Positions 35,835-62,341 of a DNA stretch of 64,000 nucleotides are shown here, one piece after another. How positions within the stretch are numbered: the first letter of the stretch is position 1; every line of letters starts with the position of its first letter. The stretch is taken from IMG/VR virus record IMGVR_UViG_3300047091_000002, positions 55,488 through 119,487 of that record, one strand, 5' to 3'. A program made the position numbers and the translations under genes. The DNA is from a virus. The notes beneath the pieces were generated by a model that did not search any database, was not told the DNA's origin, and worked only from the letters and a program-made list of their open reading frames with translations.

Positions 35835-35907
35835 GGGGCTATGGACAAGTGGTTAAGTCGTTTCCCTTTCAAGGAAAAGATCGAGGGTTCAAATCCCTCT
35901 AGCCCTA
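35835..35907 (+). tRNA. trnE: tRNA-Glu (UUC), CCA not encoded
   Basis: GGGGCTA/TAGCCCT acceptor, D arm with GG, TTTCC-CTTTCAA-GGAAA anticodon arm, GAGGG-TTCAAAT-CCCTC T arm. Confidence 0.95.
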
Positions 35908-36231
35908 CATAATATCGAAAATAGATTTTTAGAAAAACAATAGAAAGGCATCACCAATGATTTCAACAGTACAGGAATTAATTGATCAATTGAAAAAATT
36001 TGATCCGTTGGCAAAACCGATGATCTACAATCCCAACATGGAATGCGATGAGGAAATACACGCCATAACAGCATTTCCCCAAGAGAATGTTGTTATTTTA
36101 GATTAATGACTTGGAAAAAAGAGGTTGATTCTGTGAGCGCAAGCTTATACGGAAATTACAGCATTGAAAGCTTAAAAAGAATTCATACTGGTTCGCGCCT
36201 AGTGTGTCTTTCGATAGGTTCTGCGTAAAAC

Positions 36232-39971: not shown

Positions 39972-40202
39972 TTGGTAAAAATGCCGCTTAAAGAATATGA
40001 AGTTAGAAATATACTTACAAATACGATAGTTGTGGAAGCTTATTTGGATTTACTTAGTCGCAATCTTTTTACCCATCCAAATTCATACCCAGAAGATGTA
40101 GAAAAAGAACTTCCAAAAATAATAGAAATGGTAGGAATACTTTCTCGAACCACAACTAGACTATTAGAAATCTATGATAACCGTAATTCTAATCTCACCT
40201 AA
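39972..40202 (+). CDS. Hypothetical protein
   Basis: ORF track. Confidence 0.45.
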   Translation: MVKMPLKEYEVRNILTNTIVVEAYLDLLSRNLFTHPNSYPEDVEKELPKIIEMVGILSRTTTRLLEIYDNRNSNLT

Positions 40203-40635
40203 AGACGAATTTAATGTTGCTCAATCCTTAAGAAATCTAGCAGAATTAGCCGGAGATGAGCCAGCTAAATTAGTTGTTGTTAATCGTAGATACGTACCGG
40301 CAACAGGAGAAAAAGGCGATAGAAAACCCCGACCCTTTAGAATGAAGGCGTATGACCACGTTCAAGTTGAATATCATGAATCAATTCCTAATTGGGCTTA
40401 TCTTGATTCTGGAAGAACTGTTGTGGTAGAATGTTTAGACTGGGCTACATCCCTTCCTACCTTTAAACACCCTAAAAATCCTATCTATATATTCGGACCA
40501 GAAGATGGAAATATCCCTAAATGGATTATCGAAAAGACAAAGAAGTATGTTAAAGTAGAGACTCTCGAATGTCTCAACTTGGCAATGGCAGTGGGGATTG
40601 TAATTTATGACAAGAAAATTAATCGCCAGGCGTAG
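40174..40635 (+). CDS. SPOUT (SpoU/TrmH/TrmL-like) RNA methyltransferase
   Basis: NVAQSLRN motif 1, IYIFGPEDG motif 2, CLNLAMAVGIVIYD motif 3. Confidence 0.85.
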   Translation: MITVILISPKDEFNVAQSLRNLAELAGDEPAKLVVVNRRYVPATGEKGDRKPRPFRMKAYDHVQVEYHESIPNWAYLDSGRTVVVECLDWATSLPTFKHPKNPIYIFGPEDGNIPKWIIEKTKKYVKVETLECLNLAMAVGIVIYDKKINRQA

Positions 40636-41961: not shown

Positions 41962-41991
41962 TTGCGAAACTATCTTAGTTAGATGTATAAT
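41962..41991 (+). promoter_or_regulatory. sigma70-type promoter
   Basis: TTGCGA - 18 nt - TATAAT. Confidence 0.5.
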
Positions 41992-42077: not shown

Positions 42078-42917
42078 ATGAGTACAGTAAAATCATTAGC
42101 AAAAACGGATAGGGATTATACCCCTGTCCGGTTCAGGTTTTTAGCCGCCGGGCAGATGAAGATTCAAGTGAATCTTTCACCCCCCGTTAATCGCAGTTAC
42201 GGGCTTCGTTCTATTGGAGCATTTGAACCTGTAAATGCAACAGAAGCGGATGCCCATCTTGCTTTCTTTAAGTCCGCTACCAAATCAAATTCTCTAGCCG
42301 GAACTAAGGAACAGTACGCAGAAGCGTTGGTTCGAGAATCGAACGGAAATTTGAAGTGGCAAGTTCCGGTATCAAATCCTCACGGATTTAGTTCACATAT
42401 AGTTCGAGATGGATATGTTTCTTTCGTTTCAAGTGGGGCTGATCATCCAGAACTTGTTGCGTTCCTCACTCCCAAAACTGCTCTAAAAATGGGAATAGCA
42501 GCAGTCGCCCCCAATAATCTGGTAGAAGCGTTTGTACCATCTCTTGCTGGCACTGGTGCGGAGTATTTGCGGGGTCAAATCCGAATTACATCTAATGGAC
42601 GAATCAGATTTCAGGCTGCGCTAACGAAAGCTGAAAATCGTGACTACGGATTTGCAGAGAAGACTGAAAAGAATAGTACATACCGTGGACTATTCGATGT
42701 AGTTATCGCAAATGCTTCTGGAAAAAATTCGTCTTTGGCTGATACCGGACAGACATATTCGGAGGTGCGAGTTCGCGCCAGTGATTCAAATCTTAAGTGG
42801 CAGGTCCCAGCTACAAGTATGGAGGGAGTACCTCCCAGCAATCAACGAAAAGGATACATTTCCTTTACCACAAAAGGAATTCTTCCTGAGTTGCTTGAGT
42901 TTCTAAATAACCAGTAA
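42078..42917 (+). CDS. Protein of two tandem copies of an unknown domain
   Basis: Repeat motifs NRxYG, (N/S)SLAxT, LKWQVP, GYxSF occur twice; GGAG RBS before ATG 42078. Confidence 0.75.
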   Translation: MSTVKSLAKTDRDYTPVRFRFLAAGQMKIQVNLSPPVNRSYGLRSIGAFEPVNATEADAHLAFFKSATKSNSLAGTKEQYAEALVRESNGNLKWQVPVSNPHGFSSHIVRDGYVSFVSSGADHPELVAFLTPKTALKMGIAAVAPNNLVEAFVPSLAGTGAEYLRGQIRITSNGRIRFQAALTKAENRDYGFAEKTEKNSTYRGLFDVVIANASGKNSSLADTGQTYSEVRVRASDSNLKWQVPATSMEGVPPSNQRKGYISFTTKGILPELLEFLNNQ

Positions 42918-42944
42918 ATAAAATAGTAGCTCACGTTAATTCGA

Positions 42945-42975
42945 TACGGGGGAAAAATTCCCCCGTAATTTTTTT
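42945..42975 (+). terminator. Intrinsic terminator
   Basis: TACGGGGGAA-AAA-TTCCCCCGTA-ATTTTTTT. Confidence 0.75.
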
Positions 42976-43083
42976 GTAACTAATTCAGATAAAGGATATT
43001 TATATAACCAACTCATGGAAAGATTATGTGATAGCGTCCCAAGGACGCAAAAAGCCCAAGGTTGCCGTAAACTTGGACGAATA

Positions 43084-44808
43084 ATGTTTAAAATCGGATT
43101 GCCTTCCGGGTTTAATCTTGCTCATGCCTACCTAACAAATATTAAAGATGTTAAAAACGGGAACACATTTTATCAGGATTCCGAGAAAGAAAAATTCGTT
43201 AGACCGGCTCCAACGGAACCTCGACATGGCTTTGTGGACAGCCGAGTAGTAAGGGTATCCGAATTCGATTCCGTGTTACCTAAAATTGCCGATGAAATGA
43301 TAGCGGCAGGGGAGCCGAATGGAGAAATGATTATTGCATCAACGATTACAGCTAGAGGGAATTCCGTTATAACTCCATGTCGGATAGTGGCTGGTCCCGG
43401 AAATGACGGGGCAACAAACGGCAAAAATACCACTGAAATACCACTTAAAATAGAATTTTTGCTTAACACTTTATTTGAGGAATTAGGAATATTCGATCAT
43501 ATAAATTTTTTTAAAGGTTGGCCCTACATAGAATTGGTAGATCCAATAATAAAGGGAGACAGTTCTCCGAAAATGCGTACGTCGCAATATACCCAAATTA
43601 GAGGAGGACCTAAACCTCCCAGCTACGGAGAAGGTAGGAAAATAAAAGTAGAAAGAGTGATTAAAGTGGAGCAGGATGCGAAAGATCCAGCAGCACTTTT
43701 GAAATGGGAATATCTTGTAAATGAGCTTAAGAAATTCGTAATTGAAGAAAATATTACGAAAACTCCCGTAATATGGCATCCAGGGGGTGCCATAACATCT
43801 CATTATGGTGCTCATGCCACAATCAATGATATACCGTATCTCACTGGTGAGGAGCCGGTAGTTGGACAAGTGATGGACACTGTTCAAGTTATTGGAGATA
43901 AAATAGATATTCATCAGATACGAGAAGGATTGTTAGCAGGATTAGCATCATCGAATATTGATTTTAACTCGGCATCGGAATATTTGCGAGGTGCTGTGGG
44001 GATCATCCATTTGATGGGTTATTTGGATCCTTGCCATCCCGCTACCGCACGACTTATCGGATTTGCATTCGGTAGAGCGGTGCGAGTTTTAATAGCCTTG
44101 CCATGCGGAGAAGCTAGACATGCAACCGTAGATTCTTTTTTCCTTAAAAATTTATTATTGGATTCGCTTATAGATAGAGTATCCGTATATTCCAAGATCT
44201 GGAGTATGGATATTACAGAAGCATTATCAAAACTCGGAAGTTGCCAATATCTATTTCAGAATATTAAATGGGGTGCCGGATATGGGGGTCCAAAATGGGC
44301 TAAATGCACGAAATCTTTGTTAAATTTTGTTAAAGCTATTGAAATTTTTATACGTAAGCCTACAATAGTTAGATCTAAAAGATTAATCATCCTATTTAAT
44401 GCCGTTGTTAATGAAGCGCATAACGGCGGATGGTGGTTTAACAAACTATTACATGATAATTATACGCTTGATACCATTAAGCGTTTGCCGATTTTGGCAA
44501 TTCCTGGATTTATGATAGTAGAAAGTCAAATTTCTTCTTCAGAAGAATACAAGCCTGTAGAAATGGTGAAGATATTTAAAGAAGGGTTCGAGAAGACAGA
44601 AAAAATGATTCCGAAGTATATTCCACCAATAAAGAATTCGGAAATAACCGAATATTGTGATTGCGAATGTTGTTGCAAAGAAGCAAAAACGCTGCTAGTG
44701 AAAAAAGAAATTCCAAAAATACCCAAAATTGAAGAAATGTTATCCAGTAAGAAAAAGAAATTGGGAGTTGGATCTATAATATCGGAGGCTAAGAAAAGAA
44801 ATGCTTAA
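43084..44808 (+). CDS. PEP-utilizer/pyruvate-phosphate-dikinase-like protein (swivel phospho-His domain)
   Basis: HPGGAITSHYGAHATINDIP matches GGxTSHxxIxxxxxxIP; N-terminal VRPAPTEPRHGFVDSRVV possibly ATP-grasp-like; C-terminal helical domain with GYGGPKW. Confidence 0.7.
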   Translation: MFKIGLPSGFNLAHAYLTNIKDVKNGNTFYQDSEKEKFVRPAPTEPRHGFVDSRVVRVSEFDSVLPKIADEMIAAGEPNGEMIIASTITARGNSVITPCRIVAGPGNDGATNGKNTTEIPLKIEFLLNTLFEELGIFDHINFFKGWPYIELVDPIIKGDSSPKMRTSQYTQIRGGPKPPSYGEGRKIKVERVIKVEQDAKDPAALLKWEYLVNELKKFVIEENITKTPVIWHPGGAITSHYGAHATINDIPYLTGEEPVVGQVMDTVQVIGDKIDIHQIREGLLAGLASSNIDFNSASEYLRGAVGIIHLMGYLDPCHPATARLIGFAFGRAVRVLIALPCGEARHATVDSFFLKNLLLDSLIDRVSVYSKIWSMDITEALSKLGSCQYLFQNIKWGAGYGGPKWAKCTKSLLNFVKAIEIFIRKPTIVRSKRLIILFNAVVNEAHNGGWWFNKLLHDNYTLDTIKRLPILAIPGFMIVESQISSSEEYKPVEMVKIFKEGFEKTEKMIPKYIPPIKNSEITEYCDCECCCKEAKTLLVKKEIPKIPKIEEMLSSKKKKLGVGSIISEAKKRNA

Positions 44809-45256
44809 TACGAAATTAGAAAAATTTGAAGTGGTTAACTCTCTAGCCGGGACGGAAAAGAAATATCTCAAAATACAATTTCGACTTGAAAAAACCATTC
44901 TAAGAATTCAATGCCCTCTTGAAAATTCGCTTAATAGACCGTACGGATTTTGCATTGAATCGTCTAATTTAGAAGTATTAGATCTTGAAATTTTCAAACA
45001 GTTACAAAAGATTGCTAAGGCAGTATCGTCATTAGCTATATCCAATCAAGTATATTTCGTAGGATATGTTCGATTGGAAAAGAACAAAATCAAGTGGCAG
45101 GTAGAATGTCCGAACCTGCATCTCGTCGAATCAGGAATAGTGATGTTGCCATTTATTCGCGGCGCTACGGAAAAAACAGCATATGCATCCTTTAATACGT
45201 CGAGTCTTGCTATAAAAGGACTTTCCGAGGTTATTACAAATGTTTTAGGAAAATAG
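44801..45256 (+). CDS. Single-copy paralog of the 42078-42917 repeat domain
   Basis: LNRPYGF, VSSLAIS, IKWQVE, AYASF; extra NSLAGT half-repeat at N-terminus. Confidence 0.7.
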   Translation: MLNTKLEKFEVVNSLAGTEKKYLKIQFRLEKTILRIQCPLENSLNRPYGFCIESSNLEVLDLEIFKQLQKIAKAVSSLAISNQVYFVGYVRLEKNKIKWQVECPNLHLVESGIVMLPFIRGATEKTAYASFNTSSLAIKGLSEVITNVLGK

Positions 45257-45392
45257 TCTTCAGAAGAAATTGAAATCTCGAAAAATATAATTGGTAACAA
45301 TATACTCGAAATACAACCCAAAAATACAATAAAAATTAAGAACAAAGTAAAGCCCCAGCCTAAAGGAAAAAAGATAAAAAAGGAGATCGTGG

Positions 45393-46949
45393 ATGAGGTG
45401 GTTTATTTTTAAGCGAGATGTTGAATTTTGTGATTCCCCGTTACCTATGTACATTCTCTTGTTATCTGAAAGTGATGTGCAGGTCGAAGTTGAGAAAACC
45501 TTAGCACGAGAACGGCTTGAAGAAATAATGGGAATAGAGGCATCAGAATATTATAGTTACTTCGGATTTCTTTTACGTGACGCTGACAAATCCGAAAATG
45601 CAGTTTTATTCGATTTTTGTAAAACTTGCAACGTTTCGGCAACATCTGTTACGATATTAGGAGAAAATTATATGAATAAAGAAAAAAAGATTTGGCAAGT
45701 GTTCTCGAAAAATTCAAAAACTATAACAGGATGTTTTTACTGTGTAGTTTGCGAGGATACGCGGACGGCTGCTTTAAACCGAATTCCACGCGATAAGTTG
45801 GGTGATTTTCCATTATATCTTGGTGCAATAGATGCCGCATCCGTTGATGAAATGGTGGATGCCTGTCGGGATAAACTTCAAATTGATCTAATGCTAGAGC
45901 TGGATTTGGTAATCTGTAGGGTAATCGACACTGATCAAACTGATGAATTAGCGTCAAATACGGATTTTACATGCTTCGTCAATGTTAGATCCGCATCTAG
46001 ATTCGATTATGTCGTCATCGAGGCTCCAGAAGATATAGCTCACAGCATATTCGATTATAAATTTGGGAAAAGCATATTTGATGGATTTGCGGGAGCGGGA
46101 GAACCCGATCTCAACGGAATAGATTCTAAAAAAGTAATACAAGAAATGATCAGGATAGGAATAATAGAAAAAGCCGATAAGGAAACTACCCTTGTTATAG
46201 ACAGTGATACTGTAACCGGACTAATCGAATTTATTAATAAAGGTGACAGAAAATTGGAAGAGTACGGAAAGAAAATCAGTGTAAGTCCTTATATAGTAGA
46301 TAAAATTACAGGAATATTGAAACCTAATCCAAATCACGTCAAGGCAAATGGAAAAAATTCTCTAGCCGAGGTTCCAAAAAAAATAGAGCCGCCATGTCAT
46401 AATGGAGATACCCTGGCTATCAAATTGGGAAAACTTTCGATTTATTGCGGAGGTAGTTCTAGGGGTGGAGGTTTTACACCTGTTAAACTAGTTGTCGATC
46501 TTAAGGGGTCGGAACTTCAGGTAGTCAGAGTATTCGGAGGCGATCCTGATTGGGAGGCAGTTGGACATTTAGTAAAAGATAATCACGTAATAAGTATTAA
46601 CTGGCCCGACTACGATGTACCTAATTTAGGTAAAAAGTTCTGGCAAGCATTCGTTGCCACCCTACTTAAGAAGTCAGCGAAGACCGAATATTCAATCTAT
46701 GTAGGATGTTTAGGTGGACATGGTAGAACGGGCACTGCGATGGCTATTATAGCTCACCTTTTAGGTATTTGTAAGAACGAAGATCCAGTAACATTTATTA
46801 GAAATAAACATTGTAAAAATGCAGTGGAATCCGAAAGGCAATTAAAATATATAGAAAAAATCTGTGGAATTTCTCTTCCAAAGGAAGCAAAAATAATCCA
46901 TAAAACTTCTGGAGTACAACATAATTTTCCTAATTGGGGGGCAGTTTAA
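45393..46949 (+). CDS. Large protein with C-terminal dual-specificity/PTP-fold phosphatase domain
   Basis: NWPDYDVP (WPD-loop-like), VGCLGGHGRTG (CX5R), AVESERQLKYI (Q-loop). Confidence 0.85.
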   Translation: MRWFIFKRDVEFCDSPLPMYILLLSESDVQVEVEKTLARERLEEIMGIEASEYYSYFGFLLRDADKSENAVLFDFCKTCNVSATSVTILGENYMNKEKKIWQVFSKNSKTITGCFYCVVCEDTRTAALNRIPRDKLGDFPLYLGAIDAASVDEMVDACRDKLQIDLMLELDLVICRVIDTDQTDELASNTDFTCFVNVRSASRFDYVVIEAPEDIAHSIFDYKFGKSIFDGFAGAGEPDLNGIDSKKVIQEMIRIGIIEKADKETTLVIDSDTVTGLIEFINKGDRKLEEYGKKISVSPYIVDKITGILKPNPNHVKANGKNSLAEVPKKIEPPCHNGDTLAIKLGKLSIYCGGSSRGGGFTPVKLVVDLKGSELQVVRVFGGDPDWEAVGHLVKDNHVISINWPDYDVPNLGKKFWQAFVATLLKKSAKTEYSIYVGCLGGHGRTGTAMAIIAHLLGICKNEDPVTFIRNKHCKNAVESERQLKYIEKICGISLPKEAKIIHKTSGVQHNFPNWGAV

Positions 46950-54372: not shown

Positions 54373-54906
54373 ATGAATACTACTAGATTTGTTAAGATTT
54401 CAGCAAGAAGAATGAAGAAACGCCCTACTAAGTATGAGTATATCTTTAGGGAAAGACTTATTAAGGCTGAAATTGCACATAGATTTCAAGTTGAGATAGG
54501 AAATTACATTGCGGATTTTCTATTTCCCGATAAGATGTTAATCGTAGAAATTGATGGGAGGTGGCACGAAGACCCCAAACAAGTAATATACGACTCCAAA
54601 AGAACCGAAGTCTTTGAAAAGATTGGATATACTGTTATTCGGGTAAAGAATCAGAATGTTAAAGATTTTTCATTAGAGACTATAATAGATATACCGAATC
54701 GAACCTCAAAAGAGTATAAGAAGGCAATCGCCAGAGCTAAGAACTTTCGTAATGTTGCCTTCTGTACTGTATGCCAAAAAGATACTCCTGTCACTAACTC
54801 AAATAAGTTTATGCCTCACGGTAGTCGTGGTTCCTGCCCTCTTAGTGGAAAATTCGTCTCAAAAGACCTAAAACTTATTTCTAGACACCCGGAAAGAACT
54901 CTTTAA
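54373..54906 (+). CDS. DUF559 / Vsr-like endonuclease
   Basis: QVEIGNYIADFLFPDKMLIVEIDGRWH...DSKRT...GYTVIRV. Confidence 0.85.
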   Translation: MNTTRFVKISARRMKKRPTKYEYIFRERLIKAEIAHRFQVEIGNYIADFLFPDKMLIVEIDGRWHEDPKQVIYDSKRTEVFEKIGYTVIRVKNQNVKDFSLETIIDIPNRTSKEYKKAIARAKNFRNVAFCTVCQKDTPVTNSNKFMPHGSRGSCPLSGKFVSKDLKLISRHPERTL

Positions 54907-55585: not shown

Positions 55586-56179
55586 ATGATATTTGATGTT
55601 AAGACTGTTTCCGCCAAAATTGGCTATAAAGCCAAACCTCCTGTAAATACATACTCTATCCCTATGCGCCTTATGGAATTAGGGTATAAAAACTATAAAG
55701 ATTATCTTAGATCGGATCATTGGCAATCTTTCCGAAAAAGATTCTTTTCTGAATCTGCAATTTGTAAGCGCCTTACGATAAAGTTCGGCAGACCTGTATG
55801 CCAGTATTGCCATTCCGGTAGAAATTTAAATATCCATCATCGAACTTATAAACGACTAGGGGGTGAACGGCTTAGTGATGTCGTATTAGTGTGCCAAGAT
55901 TGCCATAAGAGAATTCATGATTTCAACAAGACCTCTCGAAAAGGTTTATGGTCTGCCACTTCTAGAGTCGGTCGTAAACAAAAGAAATTAAAGCTCAAGA
56001 AGGATACGCCTAGTATCAGGCGTTGGATTTGTCCAAGTTGTAAGAAGTTTATGTATTTAGATAGATTTGATAATTTTGTTCTTCACGGAAATCCTAAAAA
56101 TAGATGCCCTATGAGCGGAAAAACTAATCGTAATAACTGCACCAATAAGGAGCCATATGAAATCTTTAGCGCAAATTAA
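55586..56179 (+). CDS. HNH endonuclease
   Basis: YLRSDHWQ...CQYC...LNIHHRTY...LVCQDCHKRIH. Confidence 0.88.
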   Translation: MIFDVKTVSAKIGYKAKPPVNTYSIPMRLMELGYKNYKDYLRSDHWQSFRKRFFSESAICKRLTIKFGRPVCQYCHSGRNLNIHHRTYKRLGGERLSDVVLVCQDCHKRIHDFNKTSRKGLWSATSRVGRKQKKLKLKKDTPSIRRWICPSCKKFMYLDRFDNFVLHGNPKNRCPMSGKTNRNNCTNKEPYEIFSAN

Positions 56180-60733: not shown

Positions 60734-61046
60734 AAAAGCAAAGATATTTATTCACCCTACTAAGTATATAGGCGATGTGCCAATTGAGATTCTGGCAGAT
60801 TGCACTCGTTATTTAGCAGTGCATAAGAGTATAGATAATGATAAAAAATGGGTAGTTACCCATATTCCTACTGGATTAGGAATATATAATGATTTTAAAT
60901 GCAAGAAGAAAGCGCTTGCTGCTATGGAATATCTATTAAAATATGATTGGAATTTTACTACTACGGAAATTCATAAAGATCTTCCTAAACTTCATTATAA
61001 ACAACTTTGCCAAGGTTATCTTTATGTAAAGAAAAACTTTATTTAG
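60699..61046 (+). CDS. Hypothetical protein
   Basis: WVVTHIPTGL motif common in phage hypotheticals. Confidence 0.5.
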   Translation: MIDNDNGKHIYKKAKIFIHPTKYIGDVPIEILADCTRYLAVHKSIDNDKKWVVTHIPTGLGIYNDFKCKKKALAAMEYLLKYDWNFTTTEIHKDLPKLHYKQLCQGYLYVKKNFI

Positions 61047-61054
61047 GATATAAT

Positions 61055-62341
61055 ATGTCATATACTGCGATAATTACTAAATTACAAAATGTAAGATCTC
61101 ATTCAAATGCAGATCGCCTAAAACTAGGAAATGCTCAAGGAAATCAAGTAGTAGTTGGATTAAATTCGATGGAGGGAGCTTTAGGAATATATTTTCCTAC
61201 GGATGGGCAACTTTCGGAACAATACGCATCCGCAAATGATTTAATTGGTTATGTTGATCCAGAAACTAAAGAACGCAAGGGCGGATTTTTTGCGAAGAAT
61301 CGTCGGGTGAGAACTCAAAAATTTCGAGGAGAGAAATCAGATGGTTATTTTGCCCCGTTAGAAAGTTTAGCATTTACCGGGATAAATCTTTCCTCTCTTA
61401 AAGATGGTATATCTTTTACAGAATTAAATTCTATTCCAATTTGTAATAAATACGTTACACCTGCTACCGCAAGAATGCTGGTTAATAAAAATCCTCGTAA
61501 ACAAAATCAATTCTTTAATAAGCATATTGATACTGAACAATTTAAACACCGGGGCTTTTATATTCCAAGAGGGGCATTATTATCTTTTACATGTAAACAG
61601 CACGGCACTTCAGGGCGATTTGGATATGTGCTAGATGAAAAAACCGTTCCAAATCCATTGTGGAAACGATTCTTACTACCTCTTAGTAAGCCAAAAACTG
61701 CATTAGAATTCGATTATTTGCACGGTTCAAGAAATGTCATTTTTAATAAATGGGTTGAAGATAGTTACTACGGGGACGAAGGATTTAGATGGAAGGCAAT
61801 AGAACATCTACGGGGACTCTTACATAAAGGAGAAATTCTTTACTATGAACTTGTAGGATTTACTAATACTGGTACACCGATAATGCCGGAAGTTAGTACG
61901 AAGATTTTAAAAGATAAATCAATTGAAAGTCGTTATGGTTCCGTGATGCGATATAAATACGGATGTAATGCAGAGGATACATCGAATCAAACTCGTTTAT
62001 TCGTATATCGTATCACACGAGTATCTAACGATGGAAATGTAATTGATTTATCTTGGGATCAGGTAAAAGCAAGATGCAGAGGATTGGGGGTAACCCACGT
62101 ACCGGAACTTCACGAATCTTTCGTTTATTCAGGTAATTTCGATGAACTATCTAGTCTTGTAGACACTCTTTCCGAGGGTGACGATGTTATTGATCCTTCT
62201 CATATTAGAGAAGGTGTAGTTATTCGTATTGATTTTAATGGTGAACCCTACTTCCTGAAACATAAATCCTTTAGCTTCAAGGTATTAGAAGGACTGGTTA
62301 AAGAAACGGATTCCTATGTAGATATAGAAGAAATTTCATAA
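61055..62341 (+). CDS. ATP-dependent RNA ligase (Rnl2-like, DRB0094-type with N-terminal OB-like domain)
   Basis: HSNADRL N-domain, motif I KQHGTS, motif III YYELVG, REGVVIR, LKHKS; start ATG 61055. Confidence 0.88.
   Translation: MSYTAIITKLQNVRSHSNADRLKLGNAQGNQVVVGLNSMEGALGIYFPTDGQLSEQYASANDLIGYVDPETKERKGGFFAKNRRVRTQKFRGEKSDGYFAPLESLAFTGINLSSLKDGISFTELNSIPICNKYVTPATARMLVNKNPRKQNQFFNKHIDTEQFKHRGFYIPRGALLSFTCKQHGTSGRFGYVLDEKTVPNPLWKRFLLPLSKPKTALEFDYLHGSRNVIFNKWVEDSYYGDEGFRWKAIEHLRGLLHKGEILYYELVGFTNTGTPIMPEVSTKILKDKSIESRYGSVMRYKYGCNAEDTSNQTRLFVYRITRVSNDGNVIDLSWDQVKARCRGLGVTHVPELHESFVYSGNFDELSSLVDTLSEGDDVIDPSHIREGVVIRIDFNGEPYFLKHKSFSFKVLEGLVKETDSYVDIEEIS

Follow-up and report, generated by a model that had tools for sequence, protein, structure and literature searches.

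Why would a phage encode, almost side by side, a protein that resembles the phosphohistidine enzymes of the pyruvate phosphate dikinase (PPDK) type and a cysteine phosphatase? The question is raised by a locus of four genes, A to D, in a stretch of 64,000 nucleotides (the window) that comprises bases 55488-119487 of the IMG/VR virus record IMGVR_UViG_3300047091_000002, a sequence of 119,487 bp from an uncultured phage, with direct terminal repeats. A first-pass annotation had read B as a dikinase-like enzyme and D as a phosphatase, had added the repeat proteins A and C to the system, and had suggested a reversible phosphorylation switch, possibly directed against host defence. All four open reading frames exist on the plus strand, and the motifs lie where that annotation had placed them. 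B together with the phosphatase domain of D probably makes up a phosphotransfer module that is carried by the phage and complete in itself, with a proposed histidine relay in B and with D acting in the same pathway. The enzyme classes and the functional coupling of B and D are well supported, while the reversible switch and the anti-defence role are at this stage hypotheses.

Domains of B and D and the pairing of their genes

B belongs to a large family. At least 226 homologues at about 30% identity were found, and among 1.84 billion cluster representatives searched with a profile, 1473 matched at E<=1e-3, 953 of them also at E<=1e-30. B itself had no match in Pfam, PHROG, NCBIfam, PADLOC or the sequences of the PDB. 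His263 and the GGPKW and HNGGWW motifs of B do not vary among 78-110 homologues, nor do the Cys, Arg and Asp of the phosphatase among 47 partners, so that the features of the locus are more than chance. The protein is longer than first proposed: instead of 574 aa from an ATG at 43084, we assign 597 aa from the ATG at 43015, because the extra 23 residues hold a PRTQKAxG motif that is conserved in the family. The AlphaFold (AF2) model of B, built on 86 sequences, has a pLDDT of 82 and a pTM of 0.83, and a second model of residues 201-535 has a pLDDT of 83.

The ATP-grasp-like N-terminus that had been suspected is borne out by the fold. Among 48,161 chains compared with VIA, the best match to this domain is rifampin phosphotransferase (RPH; 5hv1_A, Z 11.4, rmsd 3.2, 172 aa), followed by synapsin, the beta subunit of succinyl-CoA synthetase and ATP-citrate lyase; the top four Foldseek rows for B are all RPH, and a BFVD fold search returned ATP-grasp proteins only. 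The fold alignment of B to RPH spans residues 4-200 only. On the sequence level, a profile alignment puts E173 and Q194/R196 on the DIEW...LQxRP of phosphoenolpyruvate (PEP) synthase, with E173 on the Glu of DIEW. Visual inspection also shows a resemblance, though no more than that, of QK13AxG, FAR63PCP and GNDGATxG to the GGKGANL, VAVRSS and GEDVVAG of PPDK_N, within a region that has no significant alignment.

The second domain carries the GGAITSH motif (residues 257-263, nt 43783-43803), which had been taken for a swivel phosphohistidine site. Compared with a profile of the mobile domain of PEP synthase and PPDK, made from E. coli PpsA and 28 proteobacterial genes, it aligns over 66 columns (hhalign Prob 76%, E 2.2e-5), with His263 on the catalytic His in the GGRTCH loop of PpsA; in the model of B, a helix begins at residue 263. 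When 78 family members were scanned against 24,736 Pfam families at E<=10, PF00391 was the commonest weak match (8/78, best E 0.017, below threshold). The family consensus of the loop is HPGGSxxDHxxVHA, which makes the TSH of the source phage atypical. The TSH likeness to PPDK is therefore only partly conserved.

Taken together, the RPH fold match, the profile alignment of the His domain and the weak PF00391 matches corroborate a PPDK-, PEP synthase- and RPH-like architecture. B has two hallmarks of the dikinase superfamily, an ATP-grasp domain of the PPDK_N type, recognized by its fold and its E/Q/R motif, and a mobile domain with a catalytic His, recognized by the alignment of His263 and the sub-threshold PF00391. 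The order of its domains, with the ATP-grasp followed by the His and then by a third domain, is that of PPDK and PEP synthase. It is not that of RPH proper, as the His domain of B (205-295) precedes the third domain. Nor is B a PPDK or PEP synthase proper: no Pfam match to the PEP/pyruvate TIM barrel was found on B or its 78 relatives.

The third domain is all-helical, and we refer to it as HEL. It includes the GYGGPKW motif (residues 422-428, nt 44278-44298) around which the first-pass annotation had proposed a novel domain, and the fold searches agree, as no PDB fold matched convincingly: the best Foldseek E was 6.5e-3 (talin) and the best VIA Z was 7.6. The VIA matches to the model of the His and HEL domains were designed or GPCR bundles, up to Z 7.6, and the four-helix bundles of HEPN/KNTase_C at 6.6. 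We rejected the talin, GPCR-like and HEPN/KNTase_C likenesses, as values of Z 6-7.6 are within the noise for helical proteins. What distinguishes HEL is its conservation, with about 15 invariant polar or aromatic residues (E366, R368, H369, R388, G424, G425, W428, N462, N466, H469, N470, G472, W473, N476 and K477). This pattern would suit a catalytic or ligand pocket, and HEL is presumably the site where the acceptor is bound and catalysis takes place.

The ends of B are more variable. The tail of B has a CDCECCC cluster (residues 548-554, nt 44656-44676) followed by a Lys-rich segment, and many relatives have an N-terminal CxxC...CxxC segment in place of the Cys tail. Some relatives carry an N-terminal hexapeptide-repeat (LbH, acyltransferase-type) domain (P0073, P0083, where the match is weak, P0112 and P0120; also L011, 6098-9340), and these repeats are the only fusions seen on B relatives; other long members have extensions of 150-350 aa with no Pfam match. 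A fusion of B to a phosphatase was not found among 229 family members, and a search for longer proteins gave a single one of 1200 aa, without a phosphatase domain. An antisense reading frame within B (window 43173-43469, minus strand), 'conserved' in 30 loci, is the shadow of the conserved B frame and no gene.

Gene D, of 518 aa, starts behind a good ribosome-binding site (AAGGAG) and ends in a domain of the protein tyrosine phosphatase (PTP) and dual-specificity phosphatase (DSP) class. The intact active site claimed for it is there: a C-X5-R P-loop (C439-LGGHG-R445-TGT, with CX5R(T) at residues 439-446, nt 46707-46730), a WPD loop with the general acid (residues 404-406, D406) and a Q-loop-like AVE479SERQ483 that aligns with the QTxxQ loop of RPTP alpha and epsilon, except that Glu takes the first position. 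The domain matches PF00102 at 27.6 bits (cut-off 20.9) and PF22784 (PTP-SAK) at 26.8 bits. In 47 distinct partners of B homologues, D406, W417, C439, G444, R445, G447, E479 and Q483 are invariant and the P-loop reads CxGGHGRTGT; 43/47 match PTP-SAK, and no other catalytic domain was found on any of them. The phosphatase-family profile matches RPTP epsilon and alpha at E 1e-12, and also the archaeal SsoPTP and TkPTP and DUSP23. Because its alignment to the classical PTPs covers the WPD loop, the P-loop and the Q-loop region, D looks like a competent hydrolase.

How tightly are the two genes linked? We ran jackhmmer on all reading frames of 50 IMG/VR loci and two other contigs, a mostly viral sample. 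A PTP gene directly adjoins the B gene in 51/52 loci, downstream in 48 and upstream in three; in the one remaining locus the contig breaks off within B. The genes overlap or lie within 60 nt of each other in 42/49 loci, most commonly with a gap of -4 nt. Four of five loci from metagenome-assembled genomes have the pair as well, the fifth contig ending at B, and so has an uncultured podovirus of 41 kb (MW202572). The co-occurrence on which the first-pass annotation had staked its proposal thus holds almost without exception. All-against-all clustering found no third gene common to the loci, and since the pair has no constant companion among the phage genes, its target is probably host-supplied or universal. 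The next most frequent neighbours, AAA_25 (12 loci), RapZ_C (8-10), PD-(D/E)XK and AAA_24, mark a replication and recombination setting. Genes for the RapZ C-terminal domain (PF22740) are found beside or near the pair in about 10/52 loci (for example L002, 6455-7324, and L003, 7709-8047); the source genome has no separate gene of this kind, and its sole weak PF22740 match falls on the P-loop of D itself.

The split form in cultured phages

But is the system confined to uncultured viruses? A tblastn search of INPHARED with B found no match, and with P0093, a central member of the family, only four uncultured phage records of 41 kb. With the phosphatase domain of D as the query, 19 phage records were found, and five of these phages (RHph_TM16, DLP5, SIO-2, RcZahn and KarBoss) were examined more closely. 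All five share one gene order: a 'PPDK' or 'kinase' of 645-735 aa, a short PTP and a hypothetical protein of about 330 aa, with the genes for DNA polymerase and portal at the end. The 330-aa protein is followed by a second, longer PTP in four phages; none was detected in SIO-2. Unlike the divergent B, the kinases are easily recognized PPDK_N and swivel proteins with a C-terminal region of their own; they carry GGSTSHAAVVAR and align to the canonical enzymes at hhalign Prob 100, E 1e-86. About 120-220 residues follow their last residue aligned to the mobile domain, too few for a PEP/pyruvate domain. The 330-aa proteins are homologous to HEL (hmmsearch E 9e-6 and 3e-5; hhalign Prob 96%, E 2.9e-9), and share the motifs FSGGxGGxxW and HNNGPxFNK and, by eye, ExRH. 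Of the two phosphatases, the one 3' of HEL is closer to D (E 1e-25 to 1e-27; upstream PTP, 1e-18 to 1e-20).

The clusters of DLP5, DLP3, SIO-2, RcZahn, RHph_TM16, KarBoss and Virtus are therefore the same system in a split form, made of a kinase, a PTP, HEL and usually a second PTP, where the source window has one phosphatase. The same functions are joined in one lineage and encoded separately in another, a classic sign that kinase, HEL and PTP act together, and the canonical split kinases give independent support for the divergent N-terminal half of B as a PPDK-type kinase. In published phage genome papers, this kinase is described as a glycolytic PPDK auxiliary gene. RefSeq labels some of the Cys phosphatases 'thymidylate synthase', namely gp078 and gp080 of DLP5 (NC_042082) and VPEG_00063 of SIO-2 (NC_016567). 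Given the CX5R and WPD motifs of these proteins and their matches to PTP profiles, the label seems to be an error that was passed on, and the DLP5 and SIO-2 labels are probably the origin of the odd name of phrog_17568 (thymidylate synthase).

The first-pass annotation knew of no characterized system with this make-up, and our literature searches likewise gave no functional study of the module. It is nevertheless common, present under wrong names in cultured phages: the B family alone comprises about 1,500 sequence clusters at 50% identity, from podoviruses and siphoviruses to a jumbo phage of 448 kb. The class of swivel-His dikinases is thereby extended in two ways, by HEL as a third domain and by an obligate Cys phosphatase partner, and the published labels 'PPDK auxiliary metabolic gene' and 'thymidylate synthase' can be corrected to parts of one system. 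As phages of Stenotrophomonas, Vibrio, Rhodobacter and Rhizobium that carry the split version can be cultivated, its function is directly testable.

Setting of the locus and lineage-specific additions

Table 1. Positions of the features discussed. Positions refer to the window, except for the cultured-phage genes, which are numbered within their own loci.
Feature	Position	Strand	Residues	Remarks
Promoter-like site TTGCGA-18-TATAAT	41962-41991	+		5' of gene A; consensus scan, 10/12 matches; not functional evidence
Gene A	42078-42917	+	279 aa	two copies of an orphan domain of about 130 aa, each with two SLAGTxxxY-type sub-motifs
Terminator-like hairpin	42945-42977	+		10 bp, 6 GC pairs, T-run; between A and B
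Gene B, dikinase-like phosphotransferase	43015-44808	+	597 aa	ATP-grasp, His carrier, HEL, Cys/Lys-rich tail
B, ATP-grasp domain of PPDK_N/RPH type	43024-43626	+	~4-204	invariant K13, R63, GNDGATxG, E173, Q194, R196
B, swivel-like His carrier	43627-43899	+	~205-295	invariant His263 and His267 in HPGGAITSHYGAH
B, HEL, all-helical	43909-44607	+	~299-531	invariant E366-x-R368-H369, G424-G425-x-x-W428, H469-N-G-G-W-W-x-N-K477
B, tail	44608-44805	+		low model confidence, pLDDT <50 for residues 543-585
Gene C	44801-45256	+	151 aa	third copy of the A-type domain
Gene D	45393-46949	+	518 aa	
D, N-terminal extension	45393-46412	+	1-340	source phage only; NSLAE remnant at nt 46356-46370
D, phosphatase domain (PTP/DSP)	46413-46949	+	341-518	WPD loop, P-loop, Q-loop-like motif
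Cultured-phage 'pyruvate phosphate dikinase' gene (Vibrio, Rhizobium, Rhodobacter or Stenotrophomonas)	L098 3860-5971			
Same	L099 3584-5521			
Same	L100 5412-7457			
Further cultured-phage 'pyruvate phosphate dikinase' gene	L101 4303-6507			
Same	L102 3510-5663			

The locus lies within a plus-strand block of mostly small genes (Table 1), and the tape-measure, major-head, portal and large-terminase genes are on the minus strand of the window. No DNA shared with any cultured phage was found for the source record. Upstream, 1.4 kb 5' of the locus, is a gene for a SpoU-family RNA 2'-O-methyltransferase (PF00588, E 1e-11; window 40174-40635, plus strand), and a tRNA-Glu gene lies at 35835-35908. 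On the 3' side, the plus strand encodes DUF559/Vsr-like and HNH endonucleases (54373-54906 and 55586-56179), and an RNA ligase gene is located at 61007-62341.

What distinguishes the source phage from its relatives are the proteins around B. The domain copies of A and C are related to each other (BLASTP E 1e-13 and 3e-11), and C, which has a GGAGG ribosome-binding site and overlaps the end of B by 8 nt, occupies the slot where other phages have the phosphatase gene directly after B; it was inserted between the two in the source phage. Gene A has no match in Pfam, PHROG or NCBIfam, C has no homologue among 5.8 billion proteins, and the domain they share is absent from the 52 related loci and the protein atlas. 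The N-terminus of D is unrelated to A, and neither jackhmmer nor the protein atlas gave a relative of its residues 1-340. A and C, like the N-terminus of D, were added in this lineage and lie outside the conserved unit, and the inclusion of the repeat proteins in the system is not upheld, the domain being confined to the source phage. A 17-nt repeat, AATTCTCTAGCCGGAAC, recurs with variants at 42288-42304, 44837-44853 and 46356-46372; it encodes NSLAGT in A and C, and a degenerate copy (NSLAE) lies in D just 5' of the phosphatase domain, which suggests recent duplication or recombination among the three genes. The single promoter region envisaged for all four genes is matched by a promoter-like site before A. 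The terminator-like hairpin, however, parts A from B, so that one A-D transcript is not established.

Possible chemistry, rival explanations and known systems

What chemistry might the module perform? By analogy with PEP synthase and rifampin phosphotransferase, the ATP-grasp domain of B would bind ATP, and His263 on the mobile carrier would take a phosphate, by the same analogy the beta-phosphate. The carrier would then swing over to HEL, where the pocket formed by ExRH, GGPKW and HNGGWWxNK may hold an acceptor hydroxyl that becomes phosphorylated. D, in turn, would hydrolyse either the product of B or a second phosphate on the same target. We infer this ping-pong chemistry, the use of HEL as the acceptor site and the common target of B and D from the domains and their conservation. 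As acceptors, we would rank a nucleotide, nucleic-acid, sugar or phenolic hydroxyl before a protein side chain; the phosphotyrosine-type phosphatase and the phenol chemistry of the RPH family keep an aryl hydroxyl, of a small molecule or of Tyr, open as a possible target. A bolder version, in which kinase, HEL and PTP are a new, widespread phage system, HEL is a new phospho-acceptor fold and the module marks a non-protein target in the infected cell, seems to us possible rather than probable. If it were true, the mark could be, for instance, the restriction-resistance DNA modification of DLP3 and DLP5, or an inactivated small molecule of host immunity or metabolism.

Several points weigh against such a relay. 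No Pfam family is above threshold on B, PF01326 does not match B or its relatives, the whole-length profile of B compares weakly with PEP synthase and PPDK (Prob 12-19%), and the N-terminal part of the ATP-grasp domain is left unaligned by the profile comparison. In most family members the His loop reads DH and not TSH, and the fold of the carrier was not confirmed by the fold search, in which the helical domain dominated the matches. The acceptor role of HEL is drawn from its position and conservation, as it has no known fold relative, and HEL may serve the phosphatase and not the kinase, because the split form has it beside the phosphatases and separate from the carrier His. If the kinase and a hydrolytic phosphatase worked on the same group, the result would also be a futile cycle unless it were regulated, and nothing was found that identifies the substrate.

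Could the two proteins instead pass phosphate to each other or to nucleic acid? In Enzyme I of the phosphotransferase system (PTS), a homologous swivel His and a helical HPr-binding subdomain pass phosphate to a protein, and EIIB uses a phospho-Cys. A PTS-like relay would run from ATP to His263 of B and on to Cys439 of the phosphatase-fold protein, with HEL as the docking domain and D as a phospho-Cys carrier or transferase, as EIIB is after Enzyme I and HPr. The strict pairing of translationally coupled genes would fit, as would the position of HEL, which adjoins the PTP gene in fused and split forms alike. We nevertheless judge it quite unlikely, since the partner retains the WPD Asp and the Q-loop-like E/Q pair that drive hydrolysis of the phospho-Cys in classical PTPs, and the many invariant polar residues of HEL typify a catalytic pocket and not a docking surface. 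Unlikely, too, is a module directed at nucleic acid, which would make or process a protective covalent DNA modification or heal RNA or DNA ends like T4 Pnkp, with a kinase for one end and a phosphatase for the other. Such a role would agree with the replication and recombination genes around the pair (AAA_25, PD-(D/E)XK, AAA_24), with the DNA polymerase gene beside the module in cultured phages, with the zinc-ribbon-like CxxC...CxxC N-termini of many relatives and the Cys/Lys-rich tail of B, with the RapZ_C genes near about 10/52 loci, with PTP-SAK, named from an RNA-repair protein, as the best Pfam match of the partners, and with the RNA ligase and SpoU methylase of the window. Restriction resistance points the same way: DLP3 DNA resisted all 15 restriction enzymes tested, by a modification that was not identified (PMC7326821), and DLP5 DNA is listed as resistant (PMC8228603). 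This link is weak, because resistance is widespread in the S. maltophilia phages of that laboratory, including unrelated ones. Moreover, a ThyA-type hydroxymethylase (PF00303) is absent from 21/22 complete module-bearing virus records, the source included, and from the GenBank records of RHph_TM16, DLP5 and MW202572; aGPT-Pplase3 (PF18746) was not found in five genomes, no Pfam DNA-modification family falls on B, RNA ligase occurs in only 3/21 complete records, and DNA has no free hydroxyl except at its ends. We accordingly rejected both the 5-hydroxymethyl-pyrimidine route (5-HMUDK/aGPT-Pplase), with PF00303 in 1/22 records, and a linkage to RNA ligase. T4 Pnkp combines a P-loop polynucleotide kinase with a HAD/DxD phosphatase; only the logic of a kinase plus a phosphatase is alike, B being an ATP-grasp/His enzyme and D a Cys phosphatase.

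That A, B, C and D form one lineage-specific system, in which A and C with their six SLAGTxxxY motifs are substrates or adaptors of the kinase and phosphatase, we hold to be very unlikely. Three domain copies do surround B, C is translationally coupled to it by the 8-nt overlap and D has a motif remnant immediately ahead of its phosphatase domain. Phenolic hydroxyls are also among the substrates of RPH-family dikinases, and the partner is similar to phosphotyrosine phosphatases. But the hairpin lies between A and B, the conserved Tyr may be purely structural, and A and C cannot be a general substrate, as their domain is found in 0/52 related loci and in no other protein of 5.8 billion. It is extremely unlikely that B is an auxiliary metabolic gene, a phage PPDK or PEP synthase that boosts glycolysis or gluconeogenesis of the host. 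The published PPDK annotations and the true ATP-grasp and His homology of the cultured-phage kinases speak for this reading, which fails for want of the PEP/pyruvate domain: B and its 78 relatives have HEL in its place, the cultured-phage kinases are too short beyond the mobile domain, and the obligate phosphatase and HEL partners serve no role in PPDK chemistry.

Finally, we would like to place the proposed phosphotransfer module of B and D into the context of known systems. The D family resembles RPTP alpha and epsilon, SsoPTP and DUSP23, with which its P-loop, WPD loop and Q-loop region align at E 1e-12 to 1e-9; unlike the classical and archaeal PTPs, D has Glu at the first Q-loop position, a phage-specific N-terminal extension and no evidence of a pTyr-recognition loop. 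PEP synthase and PPDK share with B the domain order, the catalytic His at the position of His263 and the E...QxR motif of the nucleotide site, but have a TIM-barrel PEP/pyruvate domain, whereas B has only 597 aa and a similarity that stays below the Pfam thresholds. A dikinase and a phosphatase acting in succession are found in starch metabolism, where glucan water dikinase, a swivel-His enzyme, is followed by the Cys (DSP) phosphatases SEX4, LSF2 and laforin on the same non-protein substrate, to our knowledge the only well-studied case of such a succession. Its domain order differs from that of B, and its dikinase and phosphatase genes are unlinked. Among the Pfam matches of B, D and their relatives there was no carbohydrate-binding (CBM) family. 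Closer in its build is RPH of Listeria (PDB 5hv1/5fbs), a three-part enzyme whose swivel His serves an ATP-grasp domain and a separate acceptor domain, as proposed for B, and whose acceptor is a hydroxyl. In RPH, however, the ATP-grasp and His domains flank the acceptor domain, the rifampin-binding domain has no detectable likeness to HEL, and there is no dedicated phosphatase partner. RPH-family dikinases, split ones included, phosphorylate small-molecule hydroxyls via the swivel His (PMC12167813). Among them, HpeHI, CreHI and phenylphosphate synthase are catabolic bacterial enzymes with no phosphatase encoded alongside, and HpeHI has its swivel His joined to the acceptor domain, whereas the split phage form keeps this His on the ATP-grasp protein and has HEL as a protein of its own. 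HpeI is itself in the fold list of B (9goj, Z 7.2), the HpeHI-type enzymes make aryl phosphates, and PTPs hydrolyse esters of this kind; the division of these dikinases into ATP-grasp and acceptor subunits is a precedent for the split form of the phages.

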